Shown: positions 21,347-57,176 of the stretch, piece after piece
Layout of the letters: every line of letters begins with the position of its first letter
Numbering within the stretch: the first letter of the stretch is position 1
Source of the DNA: a virus
DNA length: 64,000 nt
Strand: one strand, 5' to 3'
IMG/VR virus record: IMGVR_UViG_3300027759_000003
Coordinates: 32,001-96,000 of that record
The notes under the pieces: generated by a model
Told to the model about the DNA's origin: nothing
The model's input: only the letters and a program-made list of their open reading frames with translations
Databases searched by the model: none
Position numbers and translations under genes: made by a program

Positions 21347-21350
21347 CTCT

Positions 21351-21422
21351 GTCCCTATCGTCTAGTGGTTAGGACAACACCCTTTCACGGTGTAAACGAG
21401 AGTTCAATTCTCTCTAGGGATA
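21351..21422 (+). tRNA. tRNA-Glu(TTC)
   Basis: Acceptor GTCCCTA/TAGGGAT, anticodon arm ACACC-ctTTCac-GGTGT, GTTCAATTC. Confidence 0.92.
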
Positions 21423-21423
21423 C

Positions 21424-21495
21424 GCCTCCTTAACTCAGGGGTAGAGTACCCGCCTTGTAAGCGGGTTGTCGTAGGTTCAAATCCTACAGGAGGCT
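21424..21495 (+). tRNA. tRNA-Thr(TGT)
   Basis: Acceptor GCCTCCT/AGGAGGC, anticodon arm CCCGC-ctTGTaa-GCGGG, GTTCAAATC. Confidence 0.93.
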
Positions 21496-21567
21496 CAATA
21501 AATGGTATAATAGGATTGTATCTGCCTACGGGGGATACATAAACTAACTCGCTGAAAAGGAGAAAAA

Positions 21568-21987
21568 ATGGTAAGTTCGTTTGCATTGGATCTTTTTAAG
21601 GATCCATTTTTTATTGGTTTCAATCGTGAATTGGACCGTTTAAGTACAGTACACAATCTAGCAACTCGTCAGGCATATCCGCCATACGATATCTTAAAAT
21701 TAGACGAAGATACATACAGATTATCTTTGGCTGTTGCTGGATTTTCAAAAACAGATATTAATGTTTCAGTAGATAATGGAACATTAATAATTAAAGGTGA
21801 AATAGTAGAAGTAACAGATGCTGAAGTTGTTCATAAGGGAATCGCTGCTCGTAAATTTACTCGCACATTTGCTCTTGGTGAATACATGGAAGTATCTAGT
21901 GCTGAACTTAAGGATGGCATGCTTACAGTTAATATTGTTCGTATTGTTCCTGAAGACAAGAAACCTAAAGTAATTAAAATAAAATAA
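21568..21987 (+). CDS. Small heat-shock protein (Hsp20/IbpA family)
   Basis: YPPYDI, LAVAGFSK, HKGIAARKFTRTFAL and AELKDGML motifs. Confidence 0.95.
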   Translation: MVSSFALDLFKDPFFIGFNRELDRLSTVHNLATRQAYPPYDILKLDEDTYRLSLAVAGFSKTDINVSVDNGTLIIKGEIVEVTDAEVVHKGIAARKFTRTFALGEYMEVSSAELKDGMLTVNIVRIVPEDKKPKVIKIK

Positions 21988-36655: not shown

Positions 36656-38640
36656 TGGCAATTAAAAGATTAGTTAATGACTCAAGTTTAGTAAATAGTT
36701 TTAGAGCCAGTAGAGGTCAATCTAGTGCAGCAATTCCTAATGCGCCTACTATTGGTACAGCAACTGCTGTTACTGGTACTACAGCAACTGTTACTTATAC
36801 CGCCGCAGTTTTAGGTGCTACAGCATCATCCTTTACAGCAACTTCTAATCCAGGATCATTAACAGGTACTGGTTCTTCACCTATAACGGTTAGTGGTTTA
36901 GATGGTGAAACAAATTATACTTTTACAGTTTATGCAACTAATGCAAATGGTAACTCAACGCAATCTGGTGCAAGTAATCAAATTACTACACCTGTTGCTA
37001 CTTTATCTGTTGATTACTTAGTTGTCGCTGGCGGCGGCGGTGGTGGTGTTGGTGGCGGTGGCGCTGGTGGATATAGAACTTCTGTTGGCTCTGGTCAAGG
37101 TTCTCCTTTAACTATATCATTAAATGCTGATTACACTGTTATAGTAGGTGCTGGTGGCGCTACTTCAACATCAGGTATTAATTCAGTATTTTCTACAATT
37201 ACATCTACTGGTGGTGGTAGAGGTGCAAGTGGAGTCTCTGTATTTGACGGTGGTTCAGGTGGTGGTGGTAGTAATGATGCTACTAATTATGGTTTAGGAA
37301 ACACTCCAGCAACTTCACCTTCACAAGGTAATAATGGTGGCTCAAGATTTAATGGACAAACTTCAGGCGGCGGCGGCGGTGCAGGTGCAGTAGGTGGTAA
37401 TGCAAGCAATTCTACTACTGGTGGCCATGGTGGTGATGGTGCTGCTAACTCTATTACTGGTTCTTCTGTAACTTATGCAGCAGGTGGTGGAGGTGGTGGT
37501 TGGGGTGGTGGTAGTTTTAACGTTTCTGGTGGTGGTAATGGTGGTAGTAGCGGTCTCGGCGGAAATGCTGAAAGAAACGGAGTCGTTGGGCAACCAGGAA
37601 CAGTAAATACTGGTAGTGGCGGTGGCGGCGGATATTGGGTAAATGGTTTAGGTACAGGCGGCTCAGGAATTGTTGTAGCCCGATACTCAGGCACTGTACA
37701 AAAAGCAAGTGGTGGAGTGGTTACTACATCAGGTGGAAATACAATTCACACATTTACCACATCTGGAAACTTTTTAACTTTATCATCTCCACTAGCAAAA
37801 GCAAGCGGTGGAGTTATATCTACTGATGGTACTTATTGGTATCACGCATTTTTATCTTCAGCAACATTTACTCCTACTCAATCATTAACTGCTGATGTAT
37901 TAGTAGTTGCTGGTGGTGGCGGAGGAGGTACTTCTGATTCTGATACTGGCGGCTCTGGCGGTGGTGGTGCAGGTGCGCTTCGTTATTTTGCTTCACAATC
38001 ATTAACCGCAACTGGATATTCTGTAACAGTTGGTGCTGGTGGTACTGCGGGTACAACAAGTAATGTTGGTACTAATGGTATAAATTCACAGTTTGGTTCT
38101 TTATCTGCTTCATCAGGTGGCGGTTGCGGTGGTGGTGGTAATTCCCCTGGATATGGTGGAAGTAATGGTGGTTCAGGTGGTGGTGGTAAATCTAATACAG
38201 GTAATAATGGGGCTGGAACTGGAACTACAGGTGGCAATAATGGCGGTGGTGGCAATAATGGCGGACAACGTGGTGGAGGTGGAGGTGGAGGAGCAGGTGC
38301 TGCTGGTACTGCTGGTGGATTTAGTGCGTCAGGTGCAGGTGGAATTGGGTTAAATACATATTCATCTTGGGCAAGTGCAACTGGAACTGGAGTAAGTGGT
38401 TATTATGCAGGCGGAGGCGGTGGCGGAGAAGGTGGTGCATCAGGTAATGGCGCTGGACTTGGTGGAACGGGTGGAGGAGGTCGAGGCAATTCACATACTT
38501 CTGGAATTGCTGGTGCAGCGGGAACTGCAAATACTGGCGGCGGTGGAGGTGGCGGCGGAGGCAGTGCAAGCGTTGGTGGTTTATACCCAACAGGAAATGC
38601 TGGCGGTAGCGGTATAGTAATTATAAGATATGCAGTCTAA
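36655..38640 (+). CDS. FN3 + two glycine-rich domains protein 2
   Basis: FN3 then two VVAGGGGGG...GGSGIV.RY domains; ATG at 36655 coupled to the previous stop. Confidence 0.8.
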   Translation: MAIKRLVNDSSLVNSFRASRGQSSAAIPNAPTIGTATAVTGTTATVTYTAAVLGATASSFTATSNPGSLTGTGSSPITVSGLDGETNYTFTVYATNANGNSTQSGASNQITTPVATLSVDYLVVAGGGGGGVGGGGAGGYRTSVGSGQGSPLTISLNADYTVIVGAGGATSTSGINSVFSTITSTGGGRGASGVSVFDGGSGGGGSNDATNYGLGNTPATSPSQGNNGGSRFNGQTSGGGGGAGAVGGNASNSTTGGHGGDGAANSITGSSVTYAAGGGGGGWGGGSFNVSGGGNGGSSGLGGNAERNGVVGQPGTVNTGSGGGGGYWVNGLGTGGSGIVVARYSGTVQKASGGVVTTSGGNTIHTFTTSGNFLTLSSPLAKASGGVISTDGTYWYHAFLSSATFTPTQSLTADVLVVAGGGGGGTSDSDTGGSGGGGAGALRYFASQSLTATGYSVTVGAGGTAGTTSNVGTNGINSQFGSLSASSGGGCGGGGNSPGYGGSNGGSGGGGKSNTGNNGAGTGTTGGNNGGGGNNGGQRGGGGGGGAGAAGTAGGFSASGAGGIGLNTYSSWASATGTGVSGYYAGGGGGGEGGASGNGAGLGGTGGGGRGNSHTSGIAGAAGTANTGGGGGGGGGSASVGGLYPTGNAGGSGIVIIRYAV

Positions 38641-38652
38641 CAAAGGAGAAAT

Positions 38653-38853
38653 ATGAAAAAAGATAACGCAACTAAAATAAAAGAAACAAAGACAACACAA
38701 TGTTTTAGTTATGAAATAACAATGTTAGTACACGTTATTTCTGATACCGAAACAAACGCTAAAGCACAATTAGACGAAAAAGGCGGTATTGTTACAAAAC
38801 GTAATGTACAATTAGTTAATAAATCAACTCTCTACGGAGAAGAAACGGAATAA
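38653..38853 (+). CDS. Small hypothetical protein (paralog of 43310-43471)
   Basis: AGGAG RBS; CFSYEITMLVH...LDEKGG motif. Confidence 0.65.
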   Translation: MKKDNATKIKETKTTQCFSYEITMLVHVISDTETNAKAQLDEKGGIVTKRNVQLVNKSTLYGEETE

Positions 38854-38855
38854 TC

Positions 38856-39197
38856 ATGGGTCACTATGCAAAAATAGAAGACGGAATTGTTACACAGGTA
38901 ATCGTTGCCGATGGACCAGACTGGTGTGAAAAAAACTTAGGTGGTGAATGGGTTCAAACCTCATACAACACACACGGTGGAGTTCATTCAGGCGGTAAAT
39001 TTGCTATCCACAAAAATTATGCAGGTATTGGATACACATTTGACGGTATTGGCTTTGCCGCACCTCAACCTTATCCATCTTGGACAAAAAATTTAAACAC
39101 ATACTTGTGGGAAGCACCAACCCCAATGCCAGTTGATGACAAAATCTATCGTTGGGATGAAGACACAACCTCTTGGGTTGAAGTAACACAAGAATAA
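38856..39197 (+). CDS. Conserved partner of glycine-rich proteins (putative fibre assembly/chaperone)
   Basis: MGHYAKIEDGIVTQVIVA...WVQTSYN...KNYAGIGYT...PQPYPSW...WEAPTPMP...WDE motif family. Confidence 0.75.
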   Translation: MGHYAKIEDGIVTQVIVADGPDWCEKNLGGEWVQTSYNTHGGVHSGGKFAIHKNYAGIGYTFDGIGFAAPQPYPSWTKNLNTYLWEAPTPMPVDDKIYRWDEDTTSWVEVTQE

Positions 39198-39212
39198 AAA
39201 AAAGGTATCTAA

Positions 39213-41174
39213 ATGGCAGCCAAAAGAGTAGTTACCAGTAGTAGTATAGCCAACAGTTTTAAGATGAGTGTTGGACAATCTTCTGCTGCCATTCCAAATT
39301 CCCCGACAATCGGCACTGCTACTGCTGTAACAGGAACTACTGCTACTGTTGCTTATACTGCTGCCGTATTAGGGGCTACAGCATCATCCTTTACTGCTAC
39401 ATCTAATCCAGGATCACTTACTGGTACTGGTTCTTCACCTATAACGGTTAGTGGTTTGACTGGTGAAACAAATTATACTTTTACAGTTTATGCAACTAAT
39501 GCAAATGGTAACTCAGCGCAATCTGGTGCAAGTAATCAAATTACTACTCCTACTGCAAACTTAATTATTGATGCTCTTGTTATTGCTGGCGGTGGTGGAG
39601 GTGGAAGTTATGGAACTAGTGGTGGCGGCGGCGCAGGCGGATTATTATATTTTAGTTCACAAACTCTATCTCCTGCATCTTATGTAATAACTGTTGGAGC
39701 AGGAGGTGCAGCAGCCACTAATGGATATGATTCACAATTTGGTGCGTTAACTTCGGCTATAGGTGGTGGAACAACTGGAACTAATGGTGGTTCTGGTGGT
39801 GGTGCTGGTGACACTGGTAACGCTGGCTCTGGTGTAGTTGGACAAGGAAACAACGGAGGATCTAGGGGTGGAAGCATTGGTTTAGGAGGAGGAGGTGGTG
39901 CAGGAGGTGCTGGCGGAAATGGTTCAGGTAATGGTGGTGTAGGTGGTGCTGGTGTAAACACATATTCATCTTGGGCATCTGCAACTTCTACAGGTGTATC
40001 TGGATATTACGCTGGCGGCGGCGGTGGCGCTGGCCATTATAGTCAACAGGTTGGAGGTGCAGGTGGTTCAGGTGGAGGTGGAAATGGTGGTTCTGCTGAC
40101 ACAGTTGCTGCTACTTCTGGAGTTGCAAATACAGGTTCAGGTGGTGGTGGTGGTGCATTTGCTGGTTATAGTCCTAGTCCACTTGGTGGTTCAGGTGGTT
40201 CAGGAATTGTTATAGTTCGTTATCAATCTGGTACACAAAAAGCATTAGGTGGAACAATTACAACATCTGGAGGATATTATTATCATACATTTACTGCATC
40301 AGGTATTTTTCAAACAGAGTATTCAGTAGCAAAAGCAACTGGCGGATCAATAAATACTGATGGTACTTATTGGTATCACACATTTACTGGTTCAGGTACA
40401 TTTACTCCTACTCAATCATTAACTGCTGATTATTTGGTAGTAGCAGGCGGCGGCGGTGGAGGAAACATGGGCGGTGGCGGCGGAGCAGGTGGACTTCGTT
40501 CTACTGTTACTGCAACAGGCGGTGGCGGTTCATTAGAATCATCAGTATCTTTAATTAACAATACAGCATACGCAATTTCTATTGGTGCAGGAGGAACTAG
40601 TTCAGTTCAACATAATATTTCTGGCGGTCAAGGTGTAAATTCATCAATTATTGGTGGAGCAATCTCTATTACATCTACAGGTGGCGGTGGTGGAGCAAGT
40701 TATGCTTCAAGCCCAAGTAGTGGTGGTTCAGGTGGCGGCGGCCAGCGTTCTAATGGTGCAGGAGCATCTGGAACACAATATCAGGGTTATGCAGGTGGTT
40801 CAGGTGGTGGATATAGCGGTGGTGATGATAGTCTTTCATCTGGCGGTGGCGGAGGCGGAGCAGGTACTATTGGTGGTTCATATAATTCTGGAATTACTAA
40901 AGCAGGTAATGGTGGTAACGGTGTTCAAATTACTGCATTATCAACACCAACTGGAACTGGTAAAGACAGTGGCTATTACGCAGGTGGTGGTGGAGGTGGT
41001 GGATATAACTCAACCGCTGGGTCTGCAGGTCTTGGTGGAGTAGCAGGTGTAACTGGTGGCAATAATGGTATATCTGGAACTCCAAATACTGGTAGTGGCG
41101 GTGGAGGTGGCGGTACTGGAAGAAATGGCGGACCAGGCGGTAGCGGTATAGTAATAATTAGGTATGCAGTCTAA
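39213..41174 (+). CDS. FN3 + two glycine-rich domains protein 3
   Basis: Same architecture as 36655-38640; nearly identical FN3 DNA. Confidence 0.8.
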   Translation: MAAKRVVTSSSIANSFKMSVGQSSAAIPNSPTIGTATAVTGTTATVAYTAAVLGATASSFTATSNPGSLTGTGSSPITVSGLTGETNYTFTVYATNANGNSAQSGASNQITTPTANLIIDALVIAGGGGGGSYGTSGGGGAGGLLYFSSQTLSPASYVITVGAGGAAATNGYDSQFGALTSAIGGGTTGTNGGSGGGAGDTGNAGSGVVGQGNNGGSRGGSIGLGGGGGAGGAGGNGSGNGGVGGAGVNTYSSWASATSTGVSGYYAGGGGGAGHYSQQVGGAGGSGGGGNGGSADTVAATSGVANTGSGGGGGAFAGYSPSPLGGSGGSGIVIVRYQSGTQKALGGTITTSGGYYYHTFTASGIFQTEYSVAKATGGSINTDGTYWYHTFTGSGTFTPTQSLTADYLVVAGGGGGGNMGGGGGAGGLRSTVTATGGGGSLESSVSLINNTAYAISIGAGGTSSVQHNISGGQGVNSSIIGGAISITSTGGGGGASYASSPSSGGSGGGGQRSNGAGASGTQYQGYAGGSGGGYSGGDDSLSSGGGGGGAGTIGGSYNSGITKAGNGGNGVQITALSTPTGTGKDSGYYAGGGGGGGYNSTAGSAGLGGVAGVTGGNNGISGTPNTGSGGGGGGTGRNGGPGGSGIVIIRYAV

Positions 41175-41233
41175 TAAATAATAAAATAATGATACAATGT
41201 TTTTATAACTTTGATTTTTTTGAAGGGATTTAA

Positions 41234-42760
41234 ATGGCAGTCAACAACCTAAATAAGGTAAAAATTCCAGGTACTGGAACTACTGCTGCCCGTCCATCTA
41301 ATCCTGCTGTAGGAGATACTTTTTATAACGGTACCCTCGGAAGATTAGAAATTTATACATCACAAGGATGGATGGCTTTAAATGCCCCAGCAGCAACCCC
41401 TACAGGTGTAACAGCAACAGACGCAGGTTCTGGCAGGGCATACAATAATGGCTCTGCATCAATAGCATTTACTCCAGCAACAGCAGGTGGTCTACCAACA
41501 TCATATGTAGTTACATCATCTCCTGGCTCCTATACTGCGACGGGATCAGTAAGTCCAATCATAGTATCAGGTCAACAATCTTCAACTCAATATACATATA
41601 CAGTAGTAGCAAGCAATGACTTTGGAACAGCAACATCTTCTGCATCTAGTGCAGTTACTGCAACTACCGTGCCACAGGCTCCTACAATTGGTGCTGTAAC
41701 TGGTGGAAATGCTTTAGCAACAGTTGCCTATACAGCAGGTGCAACTGGTGGTTTATCTAATACTTATACTGCTACATCATCTCCAGGTGGACTTACTGGT
41801 ACTGGTTCAAGTCCTATTACAGTTTCAGGATTAACTAATGGAACTTCATATACATTTACAGTAACAGCAACAAATGCTAACGGAACATCAGCAGCAAGTG
41901 CTGCAAGTAGTTCAGTAACTCCTGTTGCAGAAATTTTAGTTGATTACCTTGTACTTGCAGGAGGCGGTGGCGGAGGCGGAGGCGGTGGTGGTGCAGGTGG
42001 ATTGCGTTCTACTGTAACTGCAAGTGGTCGTGGTACCGCACCCGAATCCAATTTAACTTTATTACCTTCAACTAATTATGCGGTTACAGTTGGTGCTGGC
42101 GGTGCTGGTGTTCTGGGTTACGAAGGAACTGGTGCTGGTGGTGGCATCGGAGCAAACTCTGTATTTAGCACTATAACTTCTCTTGGTGGAGGCGGTGGCG
42201 GAAGCAACGCTAATTTTGGTACTAACGGTGGTTGTGGTGGTGGAGCGTGTTATTCATCAGGTCAGTCAGGTCCAGGAGCAGGAACTGCTGGTCAAGGATT
42301 TGATGGTGGTCAAGATACAGTTGATATTGCCCCATATCCTGGTGCTGGTGGTGGAGGAACTGGTCAAGCAGGACAAGTGCCCCTTACTGCATCTGTCCCT
42401 GGTCCTGGAGGTAATGGTACGGCTGTATCAATTACTGGTACATCAGTTACGTATGGCGGCGGAGGCGGAGGTGGAATATATCCTTACTCTTCTACTGGTG
42501 CTCCTGGTGGTACTGGCGGAGGCGGAAGTTCAAGTGGTGGAGTAGGTGGCGACGGTACTGTCAATCTTGGTGGTGGCGGTGGTGGAAATTCAAGAACTCA
42601 AACAGGTGGCAATGGCGGAGCAGGTGTAGTTATTCTTAGATACCCAGACACTTTTACAATTTCAATTGGAGCAGGTTTAACAGGAACTACAAGTTCACCA
42701 AGTGGCGGATACAAAAGAACAACATTAACTGCAGGTACTGGAAATGTGAGTTGGGCATAA
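41234..42760 (+). CDS. Two FN3 + glycine-rich domain protein 4
   Basis: N-terminal GTTAARPSNP..GDTFYN...LEIY fibre motif; two FN3; Gly-rich domain ending TAGTGNVSWA. Confidence 0.8.
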   Translation: MAVNNLNKVKIPGTGTTAARPSNPAVGDTFYNGTLGRLEIYTSQGWMALNAPAATPTGVTATDAGSGRAYNNGSASIAFTPATAGGLPTSYVVTSSPGSYTATGSVSPIIVSGQQSSTQYTYTVVASNDFGTATSSASSAVTATTVPQAPTIGAVTGGNALATVAYTAGATGGLSNTYTATSSPGGLTGTGSSPITVSGLTNGTSYTFTVTATNANGTSAASAASSSVTPVAEILVDYLVLAGGGGGGGGGGGAGGLRSTVTASGRGTAPESNLTLLPSTNYAVTVGAGGAGVLGYEGTGAGGGIGANSVFSTITSLGGGGGGSNANFGTNGGCGGGACYSSGQSGPGAGTAGQGFDGGQDTVDIAPYPGAGGGGTGQAGQVPLTASVPGPGGNGTAVSITGTSVTYGGGGGGGIYPYSSTGAPGGTGGGGSSSGGVGGDGTVNLGGGGGGNSRTQTGGNGGAGVVILRYPDTFTISIGAGLTGTTSSPSGGYKRTTLTAGTGNVSWA

Positions 42761-48192: not shown

Positions 48193-48515
48193 TATTCGTC
48201 CCTTCCCTCAATTAGTTGTATCTGATAGTACTGTTTGTCATCGTAGGGCACGGTAGTTACAAAGTAACCAATCCTATTAACCATATGCATACCGTCACAG
48301 ATATAAGTTCCACCGTCATCTCCGTCACAGTAAGTCCAAACAGTATTAGGATGTAGAAACACATGGTCTCTAACAAACTCTACCTCGTCACCATATGTCT
48401 CAAACATATAGCCGTGCTCACCGTCATTGAATGAGGCATTCTCGTCTAAATGGTTTGGTATAGGCTTGAACTGTTTAAACCATTCATCCTCTGTAAGTTT
48501 TACTAACTTGGGCAT
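48192..48515 (-). CDS. Hypothetical protein
   Basis: MFETYGDE...VWT...VNRIGYFVT motif family. Confidence 0.7.
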   Translation of the reverse strand: MPKLVKLTEDEWFKQFKPIPNHLDENASFNDGEHGYMFETYGDEVEFVRDHVFLHPNTVWTYCDGDDGGTYICDGMHMVNRIGYFVTTVPYDDKQYYQIQLIEGRDE

Positions 48516-48584
48516 TGGGCTTCTTTCTCTAGGGTTCTTAATACAATTTTACTACGAACTGGGAAAAATTACAAGGTATCGTAA

Positions 48585-48600
48585 GGTGATCTACATCACA
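48585..48600. promoter_or_regulatory. CRP/GlxR-type box upstream of a leftward sigma70 promoter (48546-48574)
   Basis: GGTGA-TCTACA-TCACA; promoter TTGTAA-17-TAAAAT on the minus strand. Confidence 0.6.
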
Positions 48601-49316
48601 CTGCTTTGGCTTGCTCCCCAATAGGTTTGAGGGTTCTCTTCAAGAAGTCCCCTAATACTATTAATAACCTCTTCGTCAGACATGATCTCTCCGTCTGTGT
48701 TTATAAGTTCCATAATCTTATCTATGATCTCACCGTGGTCCATTAGTCTTCATCCTCATCTTCATCAATTACATATGCAACATTAGACTGACCCTCGTGA
48801 AATGAAGGTGGGTCTTGCCATATACCCCAAGATAAAGAACTATCAGATAGGCCCTCTGACACTAAGTCTCCACCAAATTGCGATGAATATGTTTTAGTCA
48901 CATTACCCATAGTATGTGTTCTCATCTATGTAACCTTCTGCTAACAAACCTTCAAAGAAGTCCCATATGGTTAATAGGCCTTGCTTTACTTTTGGGTCGG
49001 TAGCGGAATCAATAGCAACAGTTAAACTATTACCAAATTCTTGTATATCCTTGTATGTATAACCTAACATTATCTATCATACTCCTTAATCAAATTCATC
49101 GCAAAGTGAAGACAACAATCGCAGTCTCCATTATTCATGCTATATATAAAGTCAAAATGTTCAGAGTTGTCCTCATATATATTCATTATTAGGCCGTCTA
49201 TGGTTAGTGGTTTGTTAATTGTGGTCATGTTAATATTTTACAGGAAACTGGGGAAAAAGTCAATCTTTCTTAATGAAACAATCATGTGTTATTATTTAAA
49301 GAAAGAAAACCCGGAG

Positions 49317-49390
49317 CGGCTCTGATGGGACTTGAACCCACGATCTCTACCGTGACAGGGTAGCGCATTAACCAACTATGCTACAGAACC
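49317..49390 (-). tRNA. tRNA-Asp(GTC)
   Basis: Minus strand GGTTCTG...CTACC-ctGTCac-GGTAG...GGTTCAAGTCC...CAGAGCC. Confidence 0.93.
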
Positions 49391-49395
49391 AATGG

Positions 49396-49425
49396 TGAGC
49401 AGTTTTAAATCATGCTCAGGATTTT
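49396..49425 (-). ncRNA. Repeated pseudoknot-like RNA motif copy (between DUF932 and tRNA-Asp)
   Basis: AAATC-CTGAGCAT-GATTT-AAAAC-TGCTCA. Confidence 0.55.
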
Positions 49426-49428
49426 TTA

Positions 49429-50445
49429 CTAAACTAGTTGCAAAGTTTTTTGCACAACAGTTAGCAAACGATTTTTTTCTGCATTAGTTGCAGGGTCAAA
49501 TCCAGAAGCAGCAGCAAACATGCTTTCGCCATTTGCACTACGAGATGAACGATACCAGTCTAAACGCTCAGTAAGTGCATTAAATGCGCCCCAAGCATTA
49601 CCAGCAATCATGCCATTAAAATCACCAGTATAAATATCGTTAATCATATTTACCTTGTTTTCCCATTTCTTGATTGCACCCTTAGTATCTAATTCAGGTT
49701 TTGGATAAGCAGCAAGAATAATATCATTGAAATCTTTCGCTGATATTTCTTTTTGTATCATAGCATGAGCCATCTTGTCGAATTCGTCCATGTATGAGTT
49801 AGCCATACCTAGTGCTTGACGAGCAACAGCAACCTTGCCATTGGCAGTTTGTGTATGACGGATTTTGAAAGATTGCTTGACGCCATCTTTTTTCTTAGTA
49901 CGATTGAGTGCAACATTAAGAGTGTTAGCGCACACAACACGAACGGGAGTGATAGAAGCCTGAATTGCAATAGAGCCATCATGGCTAGTGTTAATAAGCA
50001 AATAAGTTTTAACCTTATCCGCAACACCATTTGGGTCTAATACAGTTTCACGCTCTAAAGCAAGAGAGCCAAATACTACACGACCACCCTTAAGAGAGCC
50101 AGCAGTTTCCCAACGACCTCCACCATCAAGAATGTTATCGCCAAATGCAAATAACTCTTCATTTTGTAGTGGTGTGTATCGCTCACCAACAATTCCCAAA
50201 ACATCAGTTTGAGATTTATCAGTTGGGTTTGTACGAACAACATATTGATATTGTTTGTCAGATACTAAACTAGATGGGATTTCTAAATCCTCTAGTCTAA
50301 CATTCCAATTATTTAAGTTAGCAGCAACAAGCATTTCACTTGTATTTTTTTCAGTATCAAATACTGTGCCAAGATTGTGCCATGCAGGCTCTCTAAATGA
50401 AGCAAAACTTGCTACGCCATTTTGAGTTTCTAAATCATGAGCCAT
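49429..50445 (-). CDS. DUF932/DUF945-family phage protein
   Basis: PAWHNLG, YTPLQNEE, WETAGSL.GG, NTSHDGS and TPVRVVCANTL motifs. Confidence 0.88.
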   Translation of the reverse strand: MAHDLETQNGVASFASFREPAWHNLGTVFDTEKNTSEMLVAANLNNWNVRLEDLEIPSSLVSDKQYQYVVRTNPTDKSQTDVLGIVGERYTPLQNEELFAFGDNILDGGGRWETAGSLKGGRVVFGSLALERETVLDPNGVADKVKTYLLINTSHDGSIAIQASITPVRVVCANTLNVALNRTKKKDGVKQSFKIRHTQTANGKVAVARQALGMANSYMDEFDKMAHAMIQKEISAKDFNDIILAAYPKPELDTKGAIKKWENKVNMINDIYTGDFNGMIAGNAWGAFNALTERLDWYRSSRSANGESMFAAASGFDPATNAEKNRLLTVVQKTLQLV

Positions 50446-50471
50446 TTTTATCCTTTCGGTTGTTTTAACTA

Positions 50472-50500
50472 AGTTTAGCAGTCATGACAGCCAATGTCAA
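50472..50500 (-). promoter_or_regulatory. Consensus sigma70/SigA promoter for DUF932
   Basis: TTGACA-17 bp-TAAACT with extended TG. Confidence 0.8.
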
Positions 50501-50576
50501 ATAGGATTGGGGAAAATGGTTTAATCTTCTTAATTGGTATAAATCGGACATTTCGGGCGGGGCCGGGTTTTTGTTA

Positions 50577-50606
50577 GGGCCAGTTTTACGTCTTGGCCCA
50601 CGACGT
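50577..50606 (-). ncRNA. Repeated pseudoknot-like RNA motif copy (covariant variant)
   Basis: ACGTC-GTGGGCCAA-GACGT-AAAAC-TGGCCC. Confidence 0.5.
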
Positions 50607-50662
50607 TGATAGCCCCCTATCAAATTTAAGCGGTCCCTGCAGCGGATGCTACAGATCTCTTA

Positions 50663-51127
50663 TTAGTTCTCCTCAAGTGACACATCGTCTACAGTTAAGT
50701 CAGCGTCATAGTCATATGAACTTAATTCTGCATCAATGGTTACACTGCTTAGATCAAAGTCTTCAATCTCATCCAATGGGATGTTAATAGTTCCACTGAA
50801 TGTAACGGTGCCGTATACACTCATTTGCTTTACAGGATTAAGATTAAAGTGTTGTGTTAGCGCTTTTAAAACTTCTTCTTTAGAATAGTTTGGGTCATAC
50901 CATTCAGGAATTTGATCTTCAAGCCATGAGATGTCTAAACGACGCTCTGCTGCTAGATTGGCATTAGTTCTGCCTTGATGTAGTTCCCATTCAAGATCAG
51001 TAACTTTATCAGTCATGAATGTAGGGCTTTCAGGTGCTGCATAGGTGTCAGGTATAGCCTTGTAGGTTACAAGTAGGTTAGGATTGTATGGAACAGATAA
51101 CTGCTCCTGTGTCATTACTTCGCTCAT
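50663..51127 (-). CDS. Acidic hypothetical early protein
   Basis: ATG at 51127 after AAGGA; promoter TTGCAT-17-TATTAT at 51153-51181. Confidence 0.65.
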   Translation of the reverse strand: MSEVMTQEQLSVPYNPNLLVTYKAIPDTYAAPESPTFMTDKVTDLEWELHQGRTNANLAAERRLDISWLEDQIPEWYDPNYSKEEVLKALTQHFNLNPVKQMSVYGTVTFSGTINIPLDEIEDFDLSSVTIDAELSSYDYDADLTVDDVSLEEN

Positions 51128-51262
51128 TAGGGGTTCCTTTTCTGTTAATACAATAATATCATCAAGATTGTGGGAATGCAAGTTCAGTTCTTAATTAGTC
51201 TCACATAATGAGATGTGATTTAGATCACGCTGCCCCGGATTTTTGCGGGGGGCAATTAAAGA

Positions 51263-51292
51263 TGAGCAGTTTAGAACTCATGCTCAGGAGTC
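51263..51292 (-). ncRNA. Repeated pseudoknot-like RNA motif copy
   Basis: GACTC-CTGAGCAT-GAGTT-CTAAAC-TGCTCA. Confidence 0.55.
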
Positions 51293-51342
51293 TTATCTCA
51301 GGAATAACTTAGCAATTAAGCCAAGTGCTTATCAGAGATAAA

Positions 51343-51513
51343 TTATTTAGTTGTGCTTACCATAGCAAGGCGTCTTGCGCCATTTGCTAATTGTAAGGAT
51401 ACTCTAGTGGTCTTAGAGTTGATAGGTGAGAACTTTACAATTCTACCTGTGATACCTGTTTTGCTTGTGGTGAATAAATCACCTAGTTGGTATGTGTATC
51501 CGCCTAGTGTCAT
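51343..51513 (-). CDS. Small SH3/KOW-like beta protein (paralog of 52112-52282)
   Basis: Read by eye: MTLGGYTYQLGDLFTTSKTGITGRIVKFSPINSKTTRVSLQL; promoter TTGACT-17-TATACT at 51550-51578. Confidence 0.65.
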   Translation of the reverse strand: MTLGGYTYQLGDLFTTSKTGITGRIVKFSPINSKTTRVSLQLANGARRLAMVSTTK

Positions 51514-51595
51514 GATTTTCCTTTTCTGTTGTGGTGGTTTGTTATATTAAGTATAACATTTTTGGGGGGGCAAGTCAAGAACCCCCCCAATACTA

Positions 51596-52018
51596 TTAGA
51601 GATAACGAGCAATAGCGTTATATGTGCTAGTGCTAACTGTTTCCTCGTCCGTCATTTTAAGGATACGGATAGCGTTCTCAAGTTCCTCTTTCATTTCACG
51701 ATAAGTATGAGCATGGATTTGCTCAAAATTACGCTCAGGCTCTTTGGGAAAGTCTGCCTCATCTGTGATTAAATCAAAATCAACATTAAGGGTTTTGTTC
51801 CAAGAACGATAGTTAGTGCGTAGGTTTTCAGCCTTTGAGATGTTAGCAGTAGCAAACTTAGCAACTTCTTTGCGCCATTTATCTACTTGCTTTTGGAACT
51901 TTGCTTCCAGTTCATCTTGATTTGTGTAGTCAGCATTTACTTGTGCTAACTTTGTTTCTAAGGCTTTGATAACCTTAGCAGTAGCGATTTTTACGCTGAT
52001 GGGTTTGCTTCTTGCCAT
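51596..52018 (-). CDS. Hypothetical early protein
   Basis: 140-aa ORF ending NAIRILKMTDEETVSTSTYNAIARYL. Confidence 0.7.
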   Translation of the reverse strand: MARSKPISVKIATAKVIKALETKLAQVNADYTNQDELEAKFQKQVDKWRKEVAKFATANISKAENLRTNYRSWNKTLNVDFDLITDEADFPKEPERNFEQIHAHTYREMKEELENAIRILKMTDEETVSTSTYNAIARYL

Positions 52019-52065
52019 TTGGTTTGTTTCCGTTTCTGTTGGTGAGTTTGATGGGGGTATTAAGT

Positions 52066-52092
52066 TGAGCAGTTTCTCGTCATGCTCAGGAC
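52066..52092 (-). ncRNA. Repeated pseudoknot-like RNA motif copy
   Basis: GTC-CTGAGCAT-GAC-GAGAAAC-TGCTCA preceded by hairpin TTAGCC-tagt-GGCTAA. Confidence 0.55.
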
Positions 52093-52111
52093 TTTAGCCA
52101 CTAGGCTAAGA

Positions 52112-52282
52112 TTAAGCGTTCTTTGCTGTCCAAGTTGTCCAGCGAGTTGAGCCATTAACATCTAACTTAACTCTAACTGTGTTCTTGTTAGTTGGCACAA
52201 TTTCGGTAATAGTTCCTACTACCTTTGATTTTTGTGATGTGTAGGTGTCGCCTACCTTGTATGTTGCGTTTGCTACGGACAT
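52112..52282 (-). CDS. Small SH3/KOW-like beta protein
   Basis: AGGAG RBS; YKVGDTYTSQKSKVVGTITEI...VRVKLDV. Confidence 0.65.
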   Translation of the reverse strand: MSVANATYKVGDTYTSQKSKVVGTITEIVPTNKNTVRVKLDVNGSTRWTTWTAKNA

Positions 52283-52377
52283 GGTTCTCCTTCTTGTTGG
52301 TTTTTGCTTACTGTATAAGTCTAACATTTTTTGGTCAAAAATACAAATTATCTCATGGATAATCTCATATATTGAGA

Positions 52378-52393
52378 TGTGAGATATATCACA
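52378..52393. promoter_or_regulatory. CRP/GlxR-type box (perfect)
   Basis: TGTGA-GATATA-TCACA. Confidence 0.7.
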
Positions 52394-52467
52394 CTTAATG
52401 CCCCATGCCTGAGAATAGGATATATAAGAATATAAGTGATAATACTATTAGTATCTCCATATGCCCC

Positions 52468-53196
52468 TTATTTCTTAGATGATGAAAAGACTATGTCGCT
52501 CTTAGAGTATACACACAAACCGCAAGATACGCAAGCCGAGCCAGCGCTTGAGATAAGTGGAATGGCTTTTAGGTTTTCAGGGCACTTAGCACCAGGTCGA
52601 TTAAATAACTCCTTCATATCTGCCTGACCTATTGCAAAATTCTGTGCAAGGTATGCAAGGCGTATCCCATGATCTTTCTTTAAATTAACGCCTATCTGCT
52701 TATTCTCGCTGTCTGTTGAATAGTATAAGGATAGATTAGGAATATCCTTTAGCATTACCGCTGCAGGCTGTACCCTTGTATATACCCAGAATTTTATATC
52801 TGTATTGTTAAGGATGATTTGTTTCCATGCTTTGGTGTACGTGTCATTAAAGAAATCACCGTCCCAATGAATACGAAATAACAATGACGCATTTTTCTTT
52901 TCACAATCTTTTTTAAAATCATTAATCATATTCTGCAATAGATCAATCATAGTCGATTCGTCAGCGTCTTTTAATAATTCCCAATTATGTATTAGGTTTG
53001 CCTTTACGGCTTTGTAAAGTTTTTCAAGTTTTCCTGCGTAGCAAACACTTTCACAAACACTAGTGGCACCAGGGCATGAATAATTCTTTCCAGCGGGAAG
53101 ACCGAACGTGTTTGCAATTGCGGCTTGCTTTCCATTTTTTGTAACAAGATTAGCAACCTTTCTGTCAAATGATCTTTTTAATTGTGGTGTTGTCAT
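52468..53196 (-). CDS. Gp88-family phage protein
   Basis: FGLPAGKNYSCPGATSVCESVCYA, FRIHWDGDF, WVYTR and C-terminal CVSCGLC. Confidence 0.8.
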   Translation of the reverse strand: MTTPQLKRSFDRKVANLVTKNGKQAAIANTFGLPAGKNYSCPGATSVCESVCYAGKLEKLYKAVKANLIHNWELLKDADESTMIDLLQNMINDFKKDCEKKNASLLFRIHWDGDFFNDTYTKAWKQIILNNTDIKFWVYTRVQPAAVMLKDIPNLSLYYSTDSENKQIGVNLKKDHGIRLAYLAQNFAIGQADMKELFNRPGAKCPENLKAIPLISSAGSACVSCGLCVYSKSDIVFSSSKK

Positions 53197-53299
53197 ATAA
53201 ATATTTTAGCAGAATGTGGAGAAAATATCAAGTGTACGTAAGGTACAAAACGGACAAATCGGGCAGGGCCGGGTTTTTCTGCGGGGAAGTGCAGAAAAA

Positions 53300-53533
53300 T
53301 TATTCTAAGTGAACATACCAATCATAGTATTCATTATCAACTAACTGAGCGGTATCTTTTTCACCAAACTCATTTTGATACTCTGCATACCAAAAGTATT
53401 GGTCAGGATCAGATTCAATAGAAAGTATTTCAACTACCTCATCATTGTATCCAATAAAATCTCCAACCATCATCATAGAAGGTTTGAGAATATCTATTTT
53501 CTTTAATTCCATGTTCATCATTGTAGCAGCCAT
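53300..53533 (-). CDS. Hypothetical early protein
   Basis: GAGG RBS; 77 aa. Confidence 0.55.
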   Translation of the reverse strand: MAATMMNMELKKIDILKPSMMMVGDFIGYNDEVVEILSIESDPDQYFWYAEYQNEFGEKDTAQLVDNEYYDWYVHLE

Positions 53534-53618
53534 TTATTCAGCCTCAATTTCTGCTAGGGTTTCCCATAGAATAGGTTCTAGAATTTTTGCAACCTGATCT
53601 AATTTATCTTGCAAGTCT

Positions 53619-53915
53619 TTACTCATATAAGTCCTCATCTGCTGGCTCAATGAACCACTCTAGGTGTGCGTGTGATACCAATGCGCTGGCGGTAGTCCAA
53701 GTGTTGCCCTTCCAACTAATTTGAAAGCCATCAACAACTGGTAATTCTATTCTACGAGAATAATCCTCCTCATAGTATGCGTCAATAGCCTCAATACATG
53801 GCTGAACCATTACTGTTGGTATTGGTGGATAATGATTACCTTGTAAGTGATACTTTAATTGTGTTTCTAGGTCTAGCGTTGTATCTGCTAAACCTATTGC
53901 TGTTATGCTTCCCAT
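53619..53915 (-). CDS. Hypothetical early protein
   Basis: HLQGNHYPP...PCIEAI...HAHLEWF motif family. Confidence 0.7.
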   Translation of the reverse strand: MGSITAIGLADTTLDLETQLKYHLQGNHYPPIPTVMVQPCIEAIDAYYEEDYSRRIELPVVDGFQISWKGNTWTTASALVSHAHLEWFIEPADEDLYE

Positions 53916-54139
53916 TATTTAATTACGACCTCTCCGTTAGTGTAGAAGGTTTTAGTATACATCTTACCTGTTGGGTCAGACAAATTATAGGTTGCGTATT
54001 CTTTAGCAAAGCCATAGTCCACGCATTTATCCCAAGCCCTAACTGCTTCTAGCATATCGCTAACTCGCAGGGTATGAATTAACTCTCCATCATATGAAGT
54101 AGTAAGTGAATAAGTATATTCCATTAGTTTAGTTTCCAA
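53915..54139 (-). CDS. Hypothetical early protein
   Basis: AWDKCVDYG.AKEYATYNL motif; coupled to the downstream gene. Confidence 0.6.
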   Translation of the reverse strand: METKLMEYTYSLTTSYDGELIHTLRVSDMLEAVRAWDKCVDYGFAKEYATYNLSDPTGKMYTKTFYTNGEVVIK

Positions 54140-54313
54140 TCCATTAGTTCGTCAGCAGATATAGCGTAAGGATTACACTCGCAAGGCTCACTATCAAAGT
54201 CTACATTATTTCCTTGATATATCCAACCATAGCCGTAGCAGTATTCGTGCTCTAGTATATCCATTAGTGCTTCTTTTACTTTACCCATTTGTTCCTTCTT
54301 TCTTTATATCTTT

Positions 54314-54335
54314 ATCCTATCAGATACAACTGACA
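54314..54335 (-). promoter_or_regulatory. PafBC-type (RecA-NDp) promoter
   Basis: TGTCAG-N10-TAGGAT. Confidence 0.6.
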
Positions 54336-54435
54336 AAATCCAATTAGACGCCTTAATCTGGGGAATTTAGGGTGTGATCTTAACCACACGTAAAGGTCAT
54401 GTATAGATTGCGACACGCCGCCTGCGCCGGGTTTT

Positions 54436-54451
54436 TCGAACAAATGTTTGA
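54436..54451. promoter_or_regulatory. Actinobacterial LexA (SOS) box-like site
   Basis: TCGAAC-AAAT-GTTTGA, one mismatch to TCGAAC-N4-GTTCGA. Confidence 0.45.
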
Positions 54452-54476
54452 GCAGTTTTTATTCTTGCTCAGGAAT
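54449..54476 (-). ncRNA. Repeated pseudoknot-like RNA motif copy
   Basis: ATTC-CTGAGCAA-GAAT-AAAAAC-TGCTCA. Confidence 0.55.
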
Positions 54477-54482
54477 TTTTAT

Positions 54483-54629
54483 TTATACTTTAAATGCTTT
54501 ACGCAATTCATTTCGCAATCTGCGAATTTCTTTTTGTTGTGCAATATTTTGTTTCCAAAATAAACCCATAACAGTTAAGCAACCAAGTAGCGCAATTATT
54601 ATTGCAATCACATCTAAATTAGTTATCAT
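54483..54629 (-). CDS. Small single-TM protein
   Basis: Read by eye: MITNLDVIAIIIALLGCLTVMGLFWKQN... Confidence 0.55.
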   Translation of the reverse strand: MITNLDVIAIIIALLGCLTVMGLFWKQNIAQQKEIRRLRNELRKAFKV

Positions 54630-54634
54630 TTGTT

Positions 54635-54844
54635 TTACCCCTTCCACATTTCAGAGCCAACAGGAATTAAACCAATTTCATCAATTCCGCAAGCCTTTTC
54701 AAATCTTGCAAAATCAAAGTTTTCATTATCTGATTGAAACCAATCCGCAAATTCTTGAATTAAATCTTCATAAGTATTTTGTGGAATTTCATCTACAAAA
54801 CTTTTTAGAATGTTTGCGGTTTTGATGTAGTCTTTTCTAGTCAT
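54635..54844 (-). CDS. Hypothetical early protein (MTRKDY...NFD..RF..AC family)
   Basis: Recognisable small phage protein motif. Confidence 0.7.
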   Translation of the reverse strand: MTRKDYIKTANILKSFVDEIPQNTYEDLIQEFADWFQSDNENFDFARFEKACGIDEIGLIPVGSEMWKG

Positions 54845-54992
54845 TAGTCAGCCTCTTTCGTAGTAAATAAAGTGCCTAGTGCAAAGTTTTTACATTCGCA
54901 CTTTTCTACATCATAGGCAAGATTATCTCCCCAAAAAATATAACCTGCGCCATTACATTCATCACACTTAAAAGTCATTACGCTACTAATCA

Positions 54993-55178
54993 TTATGCTA
55001 ACGCCTTTCCTCTAAGTGTGCCACGAACACCCAACACATCACAAGCAATTTTTACAGATACGCCAACAGGTAATTGGTTTGGGTAAGTGTTTATGAATTG
55101 AGCAACCGCACCCTGAGAAGGTAGGTTGATATTTTTTACAGCACCATTAAAGGTTTCTAGTTTTACAGTATAAGTCAT
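54993..55178 (-). CDS. Small early protein (paralog of 57173-57367)
   Basis: VKLETFNG...FINTYPNQLPVGVSV. Confidence 0.65.
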   Translation of the reverse strand: MTYTVKLETFNGAVKNINLPSQGAVAQFINTYPNQLPVGVSVKIACDVLGVRGTLRGKALA

Positions 55179-55211
55179 TTCTGACCACCTTTCGTTTTTG
55201 TTTGAGTTATT

Positions 55212-55233
55212 ATTCTATCAATTATCGCTGACA
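55212..55233 (-). promoter_or_regulatory. PafBC-type (RecA-NDp) promoter
   Basis: TGTCAG-N10-TAGAAT; perfect CRP box at 55262-55277. Confidence 0.62.
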
Positions 55234-55382
55234 TTTTCCAATTATAGGGGGTGTGTTGGAGTGTGAGTTGCCTCACATCTCCTTTATATTAGCCTGATGA
55301 TAAGCAAGGGTTATCTCCTCGCCATACTCGGCTACTAGGTCGGCATAGACCTCATCTAGATAGTTAAGGTAATCAGACATTA

Positions 55383-55583
55383 TTAACCTACCTGAACCGC
55401 TACGGTGCGGAAAGTATTGTTAATGCGACCTTCATCTATTTCTACAAAATAGGCTTCAGTATTATCACCATACCAAAGAGCACCCTTAGATTTTTCTGCG
55501 GAAATAATTGTTCCGTCAGTTAAGGATTTAGATGAATAAGATTTACCAATTAGCAAATCTTCTATTGTGTATAAGTTAGCCAT
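55383..55583 (-). CDS. Small early protein
   Basis: MANLYTIEDLLIGKSY...; RBS and promoter upstream. Confidence 0.65.
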   Translation of the reverse strand: MANLYTIEDLLIGKSYSSKSLTDGTIISAEKSKGALWYGDNTEAYFVEIDEGRINNTFRTVAVQVG

Positions 55584-55620
55584 TGTTAGCCACTTCCTTT
55601 CGTTATTTTCTTACTCCGTA

Positions 55621-55642
55621 AGTCTATCAGAATTAACAGACA
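55621..55642 (-). promoter_or_regulatory. PafBC-type promoter (variant TGTCTG)
   Basis: TGTCTG-N10-TAGACT; perfect CRP box 55691-55706; DnaA box 55718-55726. Confidence 0.55.
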
Positions 55643-56229
55643 TTTACAACCTACTAGCCAGTAATCTCAAATAATAAGACGCTCAAACTGTGTGAGAAAA
55701 ATCACATCGTACGTAAGTTATCCACAGGCTGTGGACGACACGCCATGCGTGCCGGGTTTTTTGCAGAGTTTTTATTTCTGCAAAAATTTTTTATTAGTTA
55801 AATTTATCTAATAAAATTTGTTTAACAATTTCTAATTGCGCTTCGGTTAAATTAGTTAATTCAACTGCGTTTTCAAATTGCTTAGTTATGCTTTCTGTAT
55901 TATTTTGCATTTTTATGTTTTACCTTTCTACTATATTTTTTTTTATTTGGAATTGGTGTTGCCGCATTACTACGGCGCAATTCTTGAATACGAATAATTT
56001 TGTTTTTTATTTCTTTTAACATTTTATTATTCCCAACAATTAGAGCAAGTAATTATATCTTGCTCATCAAAAAATTCGCTAGAAACTTTTTCATTACATA
56101 GACGACAATTAAGAGTTATCATTTATATTCTCCTTTTAAGATAAGTTCATCTAGCATTTTTGCTAGAGGGTCTATCTGCTCGTCAGCAAGATAGTTAGTT
56201 AATTCTAAATCTTTTACAAAGTTTATCAT

Positions 56230-56403
56230 TTACTTACCTACCTTCCATGAAGACCAATAAGATAGCAATTCGCTATCCTCAATATAGTGAGAATAAATAT
56301 TCTGCTCACAATTTTCGCAGAAACTATATTTCATATCATTTACGATAGATGTCGCTAATAGATTAGCGGTGTGCTTACACACTTTGTTTAGTAGTGAATT
56401 CAT
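56230..56403 (-). CDS. First leftward early gene, small Cys-containing protein
   Basis: Read by eye: MNSLLNKVCKH...SFCENCEQNI...WSSWKVGK; AAGGA RBS. Confidence 0.55.
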   Translation of the reverse strand: MNSLLNKVCKHTANLLATSIVNDMKYSFCENCEQNIYSHYIEDSELLSYWSSWKVGK

Positions 56404-56455
56404 TTTGAATTCCTTTCTTTAAGAGATTTACTTATTGTTCAATCTTTATACTAGA

Positions 56456-56477
56456 AGTATAACAGCGACCACTGACA
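56456..56477 (-). promoter_or_regulatory. PafBC-type (RecA-NDp) promoter
   Basis: aTGTCAGTGgtcgctgtTATACT matches tTGTCRgtg-N8-TAnnnT / TGTCRG-N10-TAnnnT. Confidence 0.65.
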
Positions 56478-56489
56478 TTTACTGACCAG

Positions 56490-56850
56490 TAGGTAGGACA
56501 AAACGGACATTGTGTCTTGTGATGTAGGTCATGTGGATAACTTGAGCGTGAAATGGGTATGTGATCTACGTCATGTGGATAACCCTCTCAGACACACCCG
56601 ACCGAGCCGGGTTGCATGTCCGATATGTCCGATATGTCGTGTGGTATATATCACTAATTACATGCGTGTTATTTACGGCGTGTCGTGTTGACTTTTGGGG
56701 TTATCCCTGCTATAATTCCATTATAGAAAATTAAATATAGAATTATTTAGGGGCGTGAGCCTAGCAAGTAAATGTGAGACAAATCACAGTGAGCCTAGCA
56801 AATAACCCCCCCTAAATTGTCAGCCCCCCCTGCTAGAATTGCAGGTATAG
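56490..56850. promoter_or_regulatory. Divergent regulatory hub (CRP boxes, DnaA boxes, sigma70 and PafBC promoters)
   Basis: CRP-like boxes 56518, 56560, 56640, 56773; TGTGGATAA 56532 and 56574; TTGACT-17-TATAAT 56688-56716; TGTCAG-N10-TAGAAT 56818-56839. Confidence 0.7.
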
Positions 56851-56880
56851 AAAGAAAGTCTCTTGAAAGGAGAACTACAA

Positions 56881-57036
56881 ATGATAAACAATAACCCTAA
56901 CAATCCCCTTATTTCGGATATTAGAAAAGCCCAACAGGCTCGCTATGACCGAGAGGATCAGAGTATCCTTGAAGCGTTAAATCAGGCTAACGCCTATCTA
57001 TCTGCTCAATACAATTTAGATGAGGAGGTTAAGTAG
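56881..57036 (+). CDS. First rightward early gene, small protein
   Basis: AGGAG RBS; 51 aa read by eye. Confidence 0.55.
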   Translation: MINNNPNNPLISDIRKAQQARYDREDQSILEALNQANAYLSAQYNLDEEVK

Positions 57037-57038
57037 TT

Positions 57039-57176
57039 ATGGAACTATTTTTAGACTTAGATGGTTTTGGTTTATATGCCGAGAGCATTGCCTTAGCAGT
57101 AGAGATACCAACATGGTTGTTGGTTGGCACTATTGCGTTCATTTATTCAATTAAATTGATTAGGAGAGACAAGTGA
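57039..57176 (+). CDS. Small membrane protein
   Basis: GAGGAGG RBS; 45 aa with a C-terminal TM segment. Confidence 0.55.
   Translation: MELFLDLDGFGLYAESIALAVEIPTWLLVGTIAFIYSIKLIRRDK

Follow-up and report, generated by a model that had tools for sequence, protein, structure and literature searches.

CRP-type palindromes in helical phase with two classes of core promoter in the early region of a probable actinobacterial phage from fresh water

Introduction

Which regulators does a lytic phage address when the spacers between its early genes are assembled again and again from the same short words? The question is raised by a 64,000-nucleotide stretch of DNA (the window), bases 32001-96000 of an IMG/VR phage record (IMGVR_UViG_3300027759_000003; 109,757 bp, about 36% G+C, 72-bp terminal repeat), in which the intergenic segments between 48546 and 56839 are built from recurring parts. 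An earlier note on this DNA had described these segments as modules of shared parts in a similar order, and had read them as sites for five host regulators (CRP, PafBC, LexA, DnaA and WhiA) that together sense the state of the host. We found that the spacers are ordered regulatory cassettes. Most of them carry a CRP/GlxR-type palindrome held in helical phase with the promoter downstream, and a second class of core promoter has what appears, on good support from the sequence, to be the exact "sigma adaptation" geometry of PafBC. For comparison, we used 80 related IMG/VR loci, fetched via the GP88-like gene at 52468-53196 of the window. The family counts of TGTCAG-N10-TANNNT, TCGAAC-N4-GTTCGA and GACAC refer to 863 kb of DNA, and words were ranked as 9-mers in 43 diverse loci.

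Results

With up to one mismatch allowed, the window has eight copies of TGTGA-N6-TCACA where 2.8 would be expected, and seven of them (four perfect, three with one mismatch) fall within 48585-56788. The four perfect copies are the only ones in the genome, and all lie at 52378-56788. Perfect boxes are also confined to about 10 kb in each of five near-complete relatives, and across the 80 related loci box density is 0.74 per kb where chance would give about 0.04 per kb. Enrichment of roughly 17-fold, with the copies clustered in early regions, upholds the earlier note's view of these boxes as far as abundance and conservation in relatives are concerned. A logo of 367 non-identical boxes reads aTGTGAT.TA.ATCACA, and the positions that lay outside the search pattern are themselves biased (T5 64%, T7 58%, A8 68% and A10 66% in the spacer; A-1 52% in the flank). 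These unselected positions agree with the CRP/GlxR consensus, TGTGAT-CTAG-ATCACA, and not with that of Rex, TGTGAA..TTCACA. Could another host regulator, such as the redox regulator Rex or a second CRP/FNR paralogue, read the boxes and respond to a signal other than cyclic AMP (cAMP)? Rex operators share the TGTGA and TCACA cores, and several small actinobacterial genomes have more than one match to the Crp-type helix-turn-helix (HTH). However, the bases next to the TGTGA and TCACA cores on the spacer side are T and A, respectively, in the logo but A and T in Rex sites, and Rex represses whereas the phased upstream positions described below suggest activation. We consider such a reader quite unlikely.

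The boxes keep a strict relation to the promoters that follow them. A strict promoter follows 301 of the 367 boxes, and from the centre of the box to the base at which the -10 element starts the distance is almost solely 41.5, 52.5, 61.5-64.5 or 71.5-73.5 bp, and the gaps between these values are empty. Spacings in the window are 41.5, 52.5, 53.5, 61.5, 62.5, 63.5 and 72.5 bp (Rayleigh R 0.89, p ~9e-4, seven boxes), and phasing is also seen across 46 downstream gene clusters (R 0.58, p <1e-5). At orthologous promoters the box is shifted by whole helical turns, for example 52.5 versus 62.5 bp, or 51.5, 61.5 and 71.5 bp; because these distances differ by whole turns, selection appears to act on the helix face. 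The match to the consensus at unselected positions, together with the helical phasing, substantiates the proposal of CRP/GlxR-like sites. As predicted here, phased upstream boxes are the geometry of an activator (class I type) and not of an operator that overlaps its promoter.

Class I CRP promoters, for which Escherichia coli CAP is the model, and actinobacterial Crp/GlxR sites have the same 16-bp palindrome, with TGTGAT..ATCACA and a central TA, and their upstream sites likewise lie about one helical turn apart. The registers differ, however: the phage boxes are centred about 53.5, 64.5, 74.5 and 84.5 bp upstream of the predicted start site, all on one helix face, whereas CRP is centred at -61.5, -71.5 and -82.5. 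Unlike the known examples, the phage boxes belong to a lytic phage, stand in nearly every early cassette, and precede promoters both with and without a -35 element. Phasing also bears on whether the sites are chiefly decoys that soak up host regulators as the phage replicates and so rewire host transcription. Four perfect boxes in 4.4 kb of phage DNA, compared with 0-2 in each of five small actinobacterial genomes, would suit such a sponge, but those genomes are of unknown taxonomy, and a sponge needs neither strict helical phasing nor whole-turn conservation of the distance between box and promoter. This explanation strikes us as extremely unlikely.

Two core promoter classes lie downstream of the boxes. 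The first is ordinary, TTGAC-17-TAnnnT. The second, which we call the -26 type, is AAATGTCAG-N7-TGn-TAnnnT; it has no -35 element and places GTC at -27..-25. Five copies (P1, P2, P3, P4 and PR2) occur within 54314-56839. In the family, TGTCAG-N10-TANNNT is found 404 times on the gene strand versus 41 times on the opposite strand, and a logo anchored solely on GTC-N12-TANNNT recovers T-1 (87%), A+3 (71%), G+4 (79%) and an extended -10 TG. Published PafBC (RecA-NDp) promoters follow the motif tGTCgg(N10)tA(N3)T. They have no -35 element, and PafB reads the GTC at -28..-23, which is strictly conserved (PMC8635444); the signal that activates PafBC is single-stranded DNA (PMC11804915). The phage promoters share the missing -35, the GTC at -27..-25, its distance of 12 nt from TAnnnT and the overall form tGTCnG-N10-TAnnnT with the promoters of these two reports. 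They differ in having TGTCAG rather than tGTCgg, a strong AAA leader, a TG extension of the -10 and a spacer that is often C-rich. Moreover, the phage has five copies in 2.5 kb of DNA. PafBC sites had been proposed at GGCGTGTC and the TGTCCG repeats. These words lie off the PafBC position; it is the TGTCAG of the core promoter, at -28..-23, that has PafBC geometry. Upstream of recA in small actinobacterial genomes we found one RecA-NDp-like match (G022) and one SOS-like match (G176), too little to count for or against PafBC in the host. The stretch between TGTCAG and the extended -10 is frequently a C run (TGTCAGACCCCCCTGCTATACT) in the family, and PR2 (56818-56839) is flanked by G7/C7.

What are the other words in the cassettes? 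The top-ranked word of the family is the 11-mer ACGGCGTGTCG (z ~79). Of 76 unique cases, 40 begin exactly at -48 (span -48..-38), which leaves two bases between the word and a TTGAC -35; elsewhere the 11-mer adjoins a CRP-type box. The window has it ahead of PR1, with the shorter form GGCGTGTCG in the P2 and P4 cassettes. A second word, ATGTCCG[AT]TT (ATGTCCGWTT), occupies varying positions downstream of the CRP-type box and ahead of the core promoter. Both GGCGTGTC and TGTCCG are genuine conserved words. Another high-scoring 9-mer, GTTCGTGTT, proved to be coding sequence.

The actinobacterial DnaA box is TT[A/G]TCCACA. The DnaA-box-like 9-mer TTATCCACA has four perfect copies in the genome versus 1.7 expected, which is not significant, and three of the four fall within 55718-56582; the family has 76 + 36 copies against 4 expected. 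The box always overlaps a CATGA-N6-TCACA half-site, and the fused form GTTATCCACATGA, a perfect DnaA-type box joined to CATGA-N6-TCACA, is conserved in the family. The DnaA-type box could therefore be part of a composite operator. The proposal of DnaA boxes stands to a moderate degree, in that TTATCCACA is clustered here and kept in relatives, but it is found in two cassettes only.

The sites assigned to LexA and WhiA did not hold up. A single SOS-like box with up to one mismatch (54451-54436) exists in the genome, and the perfect palindrome TCGAAC-N4-GTTCGA occurs twice in the family DNA. The WhiA word GACAC, with 630 forward and 583 reverse occurrences, is neither enriched nor strand-biased, and its conservation is restricted to its place inside the 11-mer CGACACGCCGT. 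These results count against a model in which every cassette has a separate site for each of CRP, PafBC, LexA, DnaA and WhiA, and the five jointly compute host state. In its favor, the CRP-type boxes, the PafBC-type promoters and TTATCCACA are genuine parts that relatives have kept, and in some relatives SOS-like GAAC-N4-GTTC palindromes are found again at two orthologous positions. With LexA and WhiA failing, with TTATCCACA limited to its two cassettes, and with GGCGTGTC and TGTCCG away from the PafBC position, we regard five inputs as very unlikely. The five-input sensor was an over-reading of a rich cassette grammar that does contain CRP-type and PafBC-type parts. In relatives such as L066 and L075, the divergent control region has a perfect TCGAAC-N4-GTTCGA between two TTGCTAGGCTCA repeats; the matching position here bears the CRP-type box 56773-56788.

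Perfect matches to the word AAAAACCCGG number five in the window and are restricted to its minus strand: four fall inside the span of the earlier note and one is at 46056. We rejected it as a regulator site: it is confined to the closest relatives, and read on the plus strand it is a GC-rich stem followed by GGGTTTTT. It looks like the tail of an antisense terminator directed against the early genes. Hairpins with T runs that resemble terminators and oppose the early genes lie on the plus strand at 55739-55751, 55758-55786 and 50552-50567, and antisense transcripts that read through from the plus-strand genes on the left may end at them.

The elements that had been taken for hairpins, TCCTGAGCA..AAACTGCTC, are two interleaved helices, an H-type pseudoknot of about 26 nt with the motif N-TCC-T-GAGCA-N-GA-N'..AAAC-TGCTC. 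Four copies on the minus strand (54475-54450, 52092-52067, 51290-51264 and 49422-49397) lie at the 3' ends of genes and precede promoter cassettes. Among 58 distinct copies, 96.9% of cells are paired compared with 85.6% after shuffling, and double changes number 53 versus 10.2. One pair is AU in 38 copies, UA in 14, GC in 4 and CG in 1, and the four window copies display all four combinations. Rfam gave no match for the pseudoknot. A lone tRNA-Asp(GTC) at 49316-49390 on the minus strand lies between a pseudoknot and P10; the other four tRNAs are together at 21199-21496.

A motif map of 48400-57100, read on the minus strand, places 11 leftward and two rightward promoter cassettes made from these recurring parts within 48546-56839. 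The earlier note's coordinates agree with the map to the base, and the shared parts do follow one another in the order it gave. Its three clear modules (those of P1, P2 and P4) were all borne out, and each of its five partial ones (P5, P6, P8, P9 and P11) ends on a good promoter. The map adds the P3 module (55277-55262 and 55233-55212) and the two rightward promoters (56688-56716 and 56818-56839).

Sequence and motif maps put P1, PR1 and PR2 in a divergent control region (56404-56862) between the leftward and rightward early genes. On the plus strand, PR1 (56675-56716) consists of the 11-mer ACGGCGTGTCG (56675-56685), a 2-nt gap and TTGACT-17-TATAAT (56688-56716) with a TG extension. PR2 (56773-56839, plus strand) has the perfect CRP-type box 56773-56788, located 53.5 bp from the -10 of a -26-type TGTCAG-N10-TAGAAT (56818-56839). 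All remaining cassettes are on the minus strand. P1 (56456-56612) has two TTATCCACA boxes (56582-56574 and 56540-56532), each fused to CATGA-N6-TCACA, then TGTCCG (56509-56504) and the -26-type core TGTCAGTG-N8-TATACT (56477-56456). P2 (55621-55762) begins with AAACCCGG (55759-55752), GGCGTGTC (55744-55737, within GGCGTGTCG at 55744-55736) and TGTGGATAA (55726-55718), followed by a perfect CRP-type box (55706-55691) and, at 72.5 bp to the -10, a -26-type promoter (55642-55621). In P3 (55212-55277), the perfect CRP-type box (55277-55262) shares bases with the stop codon of the preceding gene and lies 52.5 bp from the -10 of TGTCAG-N10-TAGAAT (55233-55212), again of the -26 type. The P4 cassette (54314-54476) starts with the pseudoknot 54475-54450 and the one-mismatch SOS-like box noted above. 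It continues with AAACCCGG (54434-54427), GGCGTGTC (54419-54412, within GGCGTGTCG at 54419-54411) and a CRP-type box with one mismatch (54388-54373), and ends on a -26-type promoter (54335-54314) at 61.5 bp.

The cassettes further left have cores with a -35 element. P5 (53203-53280) carries AAACCCGG, TGTCCG (53256-53251) and TTGATA-17-TAAAAT. In P6 (52318-52393) a perfect CRP-type box (52393-52378) precedes TTGTAT-17-TAGACT by 62.5 bp, and P7 (51550-51578), TTGACT-17-TATACT, is without a CRP-type box. P8 (51153-51292) combines the pseudoknot 51290-51264, AAATCCGG, a CRP-type box with one mismatch (51229-51214) and TTGCAT-17-TATTAT at 63.5 bp. P9 (50472-50606) has AAACCCGG, TGTCCG (50550-50545) and TTGACA-17-TAAACT, while P10 (49235-49423) has the pseudoknot 49422-49397, the tRNA-Asp (49390-49316) and TTGACT-17-TAAAAT. 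P11 (48546-48600) closes the series with a one-mismatch CRP-type box (48600-48585) and TTGTAA-17-TAAAAT at 41.5 bp. The last base of the -10 is at 56456, 55621, 55212, 54314, 53203 and 52318 for P1-P6, and at 51550, 51153, 50472, 49235 and 48546 for P7-P11.

What kind of host would these promoters meet? At least two minus-strand genes have leaderless starts, at ATG 53196 (the GP88-like gene, from P5) and ATG 49228 (from P10), both 6 nt after the -10 hexamer; leaderless transcripts are typical of actinobacteria. The phage also encodes a DnaB-like helicase, a WhiB protein and a DnaE-type polymerase that is 55% identical to the DnaE of Streptomyces phages (Stanwilliamsviridae). The encoded WhiB, the leaderless starts and the DnaE identity therefore indicate an actinobacterial host. 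A WhiB-based scan of genome contigs for the host returned five loci only, and the three close matches look like phage contigs mis-binned in metagenome-assembled genomes. Six-frame searches of the phage genome detected no tyrosine integrase, WYL domain, sigma region 4 or Crp-type HTH, and in 30 early proteins we found no Pfam DNA-binding domain.

The boxes also occur outside the family. A complete 39.3-kb WhiB phage of 46% G+C (G209; L251/L252), whose early region is non-homologous to that of the phage studied here, has four CRP-type boxes in 1.2 kb, one of them 41.5 bp from a -10, together with divergent promoters (region 20510-21800). Three tandem DnaA-type TGTGGATAA boxes adjoin its CRP-type boxes.

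Elsewhere in the window, four paralogous genes with fn3 and glycine-rich domains (35495-42760) form an island of about 45% G+C within the 36% G+C genome. They probably encode fibre proteins.

Discussion

Our analysis of the spacers suggests that host proteins read the early promoters. The span would be the early region of a lytic freshwater actinobacterial phage of about 110 kb, divided into some 12 short transcription units, and we hold this explanation as a whole to be somewhat on the probable side. Each unit would have its own cassette for host RNA polymerase. Most cassettes, of both core classes, have one CRP/GlxR-type palindrome from which an activator would contact RNA polymerase on a given helix face. 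Most likely, a host CRP-family protein would bind these boxes and scale early transcription to the cAMP or energy state of the host. A PafBC-like host adaptor, or an equivalent of another kind, may license the -26 promoters, and ACGGCGTGTCG (-48..-38), ATGTCCGWTT and TTATCCACA would bind further factors that are not nameable from sequence. The conserved pseudoknot and terminator elements would insulate the units. We give slightly better than an even chance to this combination of a CRP-family activator with a PafBC-like adaptor or equivalent, acting on insulated units. A more specific version, in which two host regulators (a CRP-type protein on the phased boxes and PafBC, activated by single-stranded DNA, at -26) act on the same early promoters along with factors for the 11-mer and insulation by pseudoknots, is a tentative proposal with clearly less than an even chance.

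Why favor host factors as the readers? First, no Crp-type HTH, WYL, sigma or integrase domain was detected in the phage. Second, its first promoters, P1 and PR2, already bear the elements, and the geometry is that of an activator. Third, the 39.3-kb WhiB phage with its non-homologous early region has the same boxes. For these reasons, the proteins that read the sites are probably host factors.

Several points weigh against reading by host CRP and PafBC. The boxes lie 2-3 bp away from the best class I positions of E. coli, and the box is not enriched in the cultured Streptomyces relatives BillNye and Paradiddles. A WYL-domain gene is present in 172 and absent from 29 of 201 sampled Actinomycetota genomes, a tally that covers eight unpublished genomes (G003, G020, G050, G084, G090, G122, G149 and G175); most of the listed genomes without one measure 1.3-1.8 Mb. 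We found no enrichment of the -26 pattern (17 searched) or of the 10-mer CGGCGTGTCG (12 searched) in actinobacterial genomes that are small and low in GC. The family loci are akin to one another, and raw counts in them overstate independence. Finally, P1, presumably the first promoter, has half-consensus boxes only; a cascade may accordingly run through a small phage protein from the P1 operon, and a DNA-binding fold could be concealed among the orphan early proteins. As for CGGCGTGTCG as a host motif, we discarded it: it is raised in G004 only, and there inside coding-like GC-rich DNA.

The cascade leads to a different explanation, that the palindromes are operators of a small dimeric phage regulator, made for example by the first leftward operon, which would activate delayed-early units or later shut them off. 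The likeness to CRP sites would then be coincidence or mimicry. The half-consensus CATGA-N6-TCACA at P1, set against perfect boxes at downstream units and PR2, fits such a cascade, and the early proteins, all orphans, have several zinc-ribbon-like CxxC pairs. Arrays of repressor sites are also known from other actinophages: the conserved inverted repeats of phiC31 and the stoperators of L5 are likewise short sites present in many copies in the intergenic DNA of one region. However, those sites overlap promoters or block elongation and are bound by a phage repressor, whereas here the sites stand upstream in phase, and we found no gene for a repressor. Nor was any HTH or Crp-type domain detected in the phage. 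Boxes upstream of the core in helical phase have activator geometry, the match to the CRP/GlxR consensus extends to spacer and flank positions that were not selected for, and the non-homologous early region of the 39-kb phage has the same boxes at the same spacing. Taken with this evidence, a phage-encoded reader appears unlikely, and we return to host-read promoters.

How do such promoters compare with those of other phages? In cyanophages, too, sites for a CRP-family nutrient regulator, NtcA, precede phage genes, but in another host phylum and with the consensus GTA-N8-TAC. To our knowledge, phased arrays over a whole early region have not been reported for NtcA sites. The -26 promoters resemble the middle promoters of T4, where a specific box likewise replaces the -35 upstream of a normal -10 through sigma appropriation by MotA/AsiA, a parallel that has been drawn for PafBC itself (PMC8635444). 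T4 encodes its own adaptors, whereas none was found in this phage and its elements are present at the first promoters already.

Searches of the literature turned up no phage for which arrays of CRP-type or PafBC-type promoters had been described. What is new here is the whole-turn shift of boxes between orthologues, the fixed position of the 11-mer at -48 and the covariation of the pseudoknot. We also add the negative results for LexA, WhiA and AAAAACCCGG, the caveat that many small actinobacterial genomes lack a WYL gene, and an independent 39-kb phage with the boxes. Two of the elements, the 11-mer (an orphan) and the pseudoknot, are new, and each follows clear rules of position.

Judged from its promoters, the phage probably ties the start of infection to host physiology. 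If the two-regulator wiring is true, it would be a multi-input promoter code, of a kind not described for any lytic phage, in an abundant family of lake phages. It would also provide natural, compact test promoters for class-I-type activation and sigma adaptation in actinobacteria. If host CRP and PafBC read these promoters, dominant freshwater phages would gauge the start of infection by the energy state of the cell and by its single-stranded DNA alarm, and the carbon status of a lake would thereby be linked to viral lysis.

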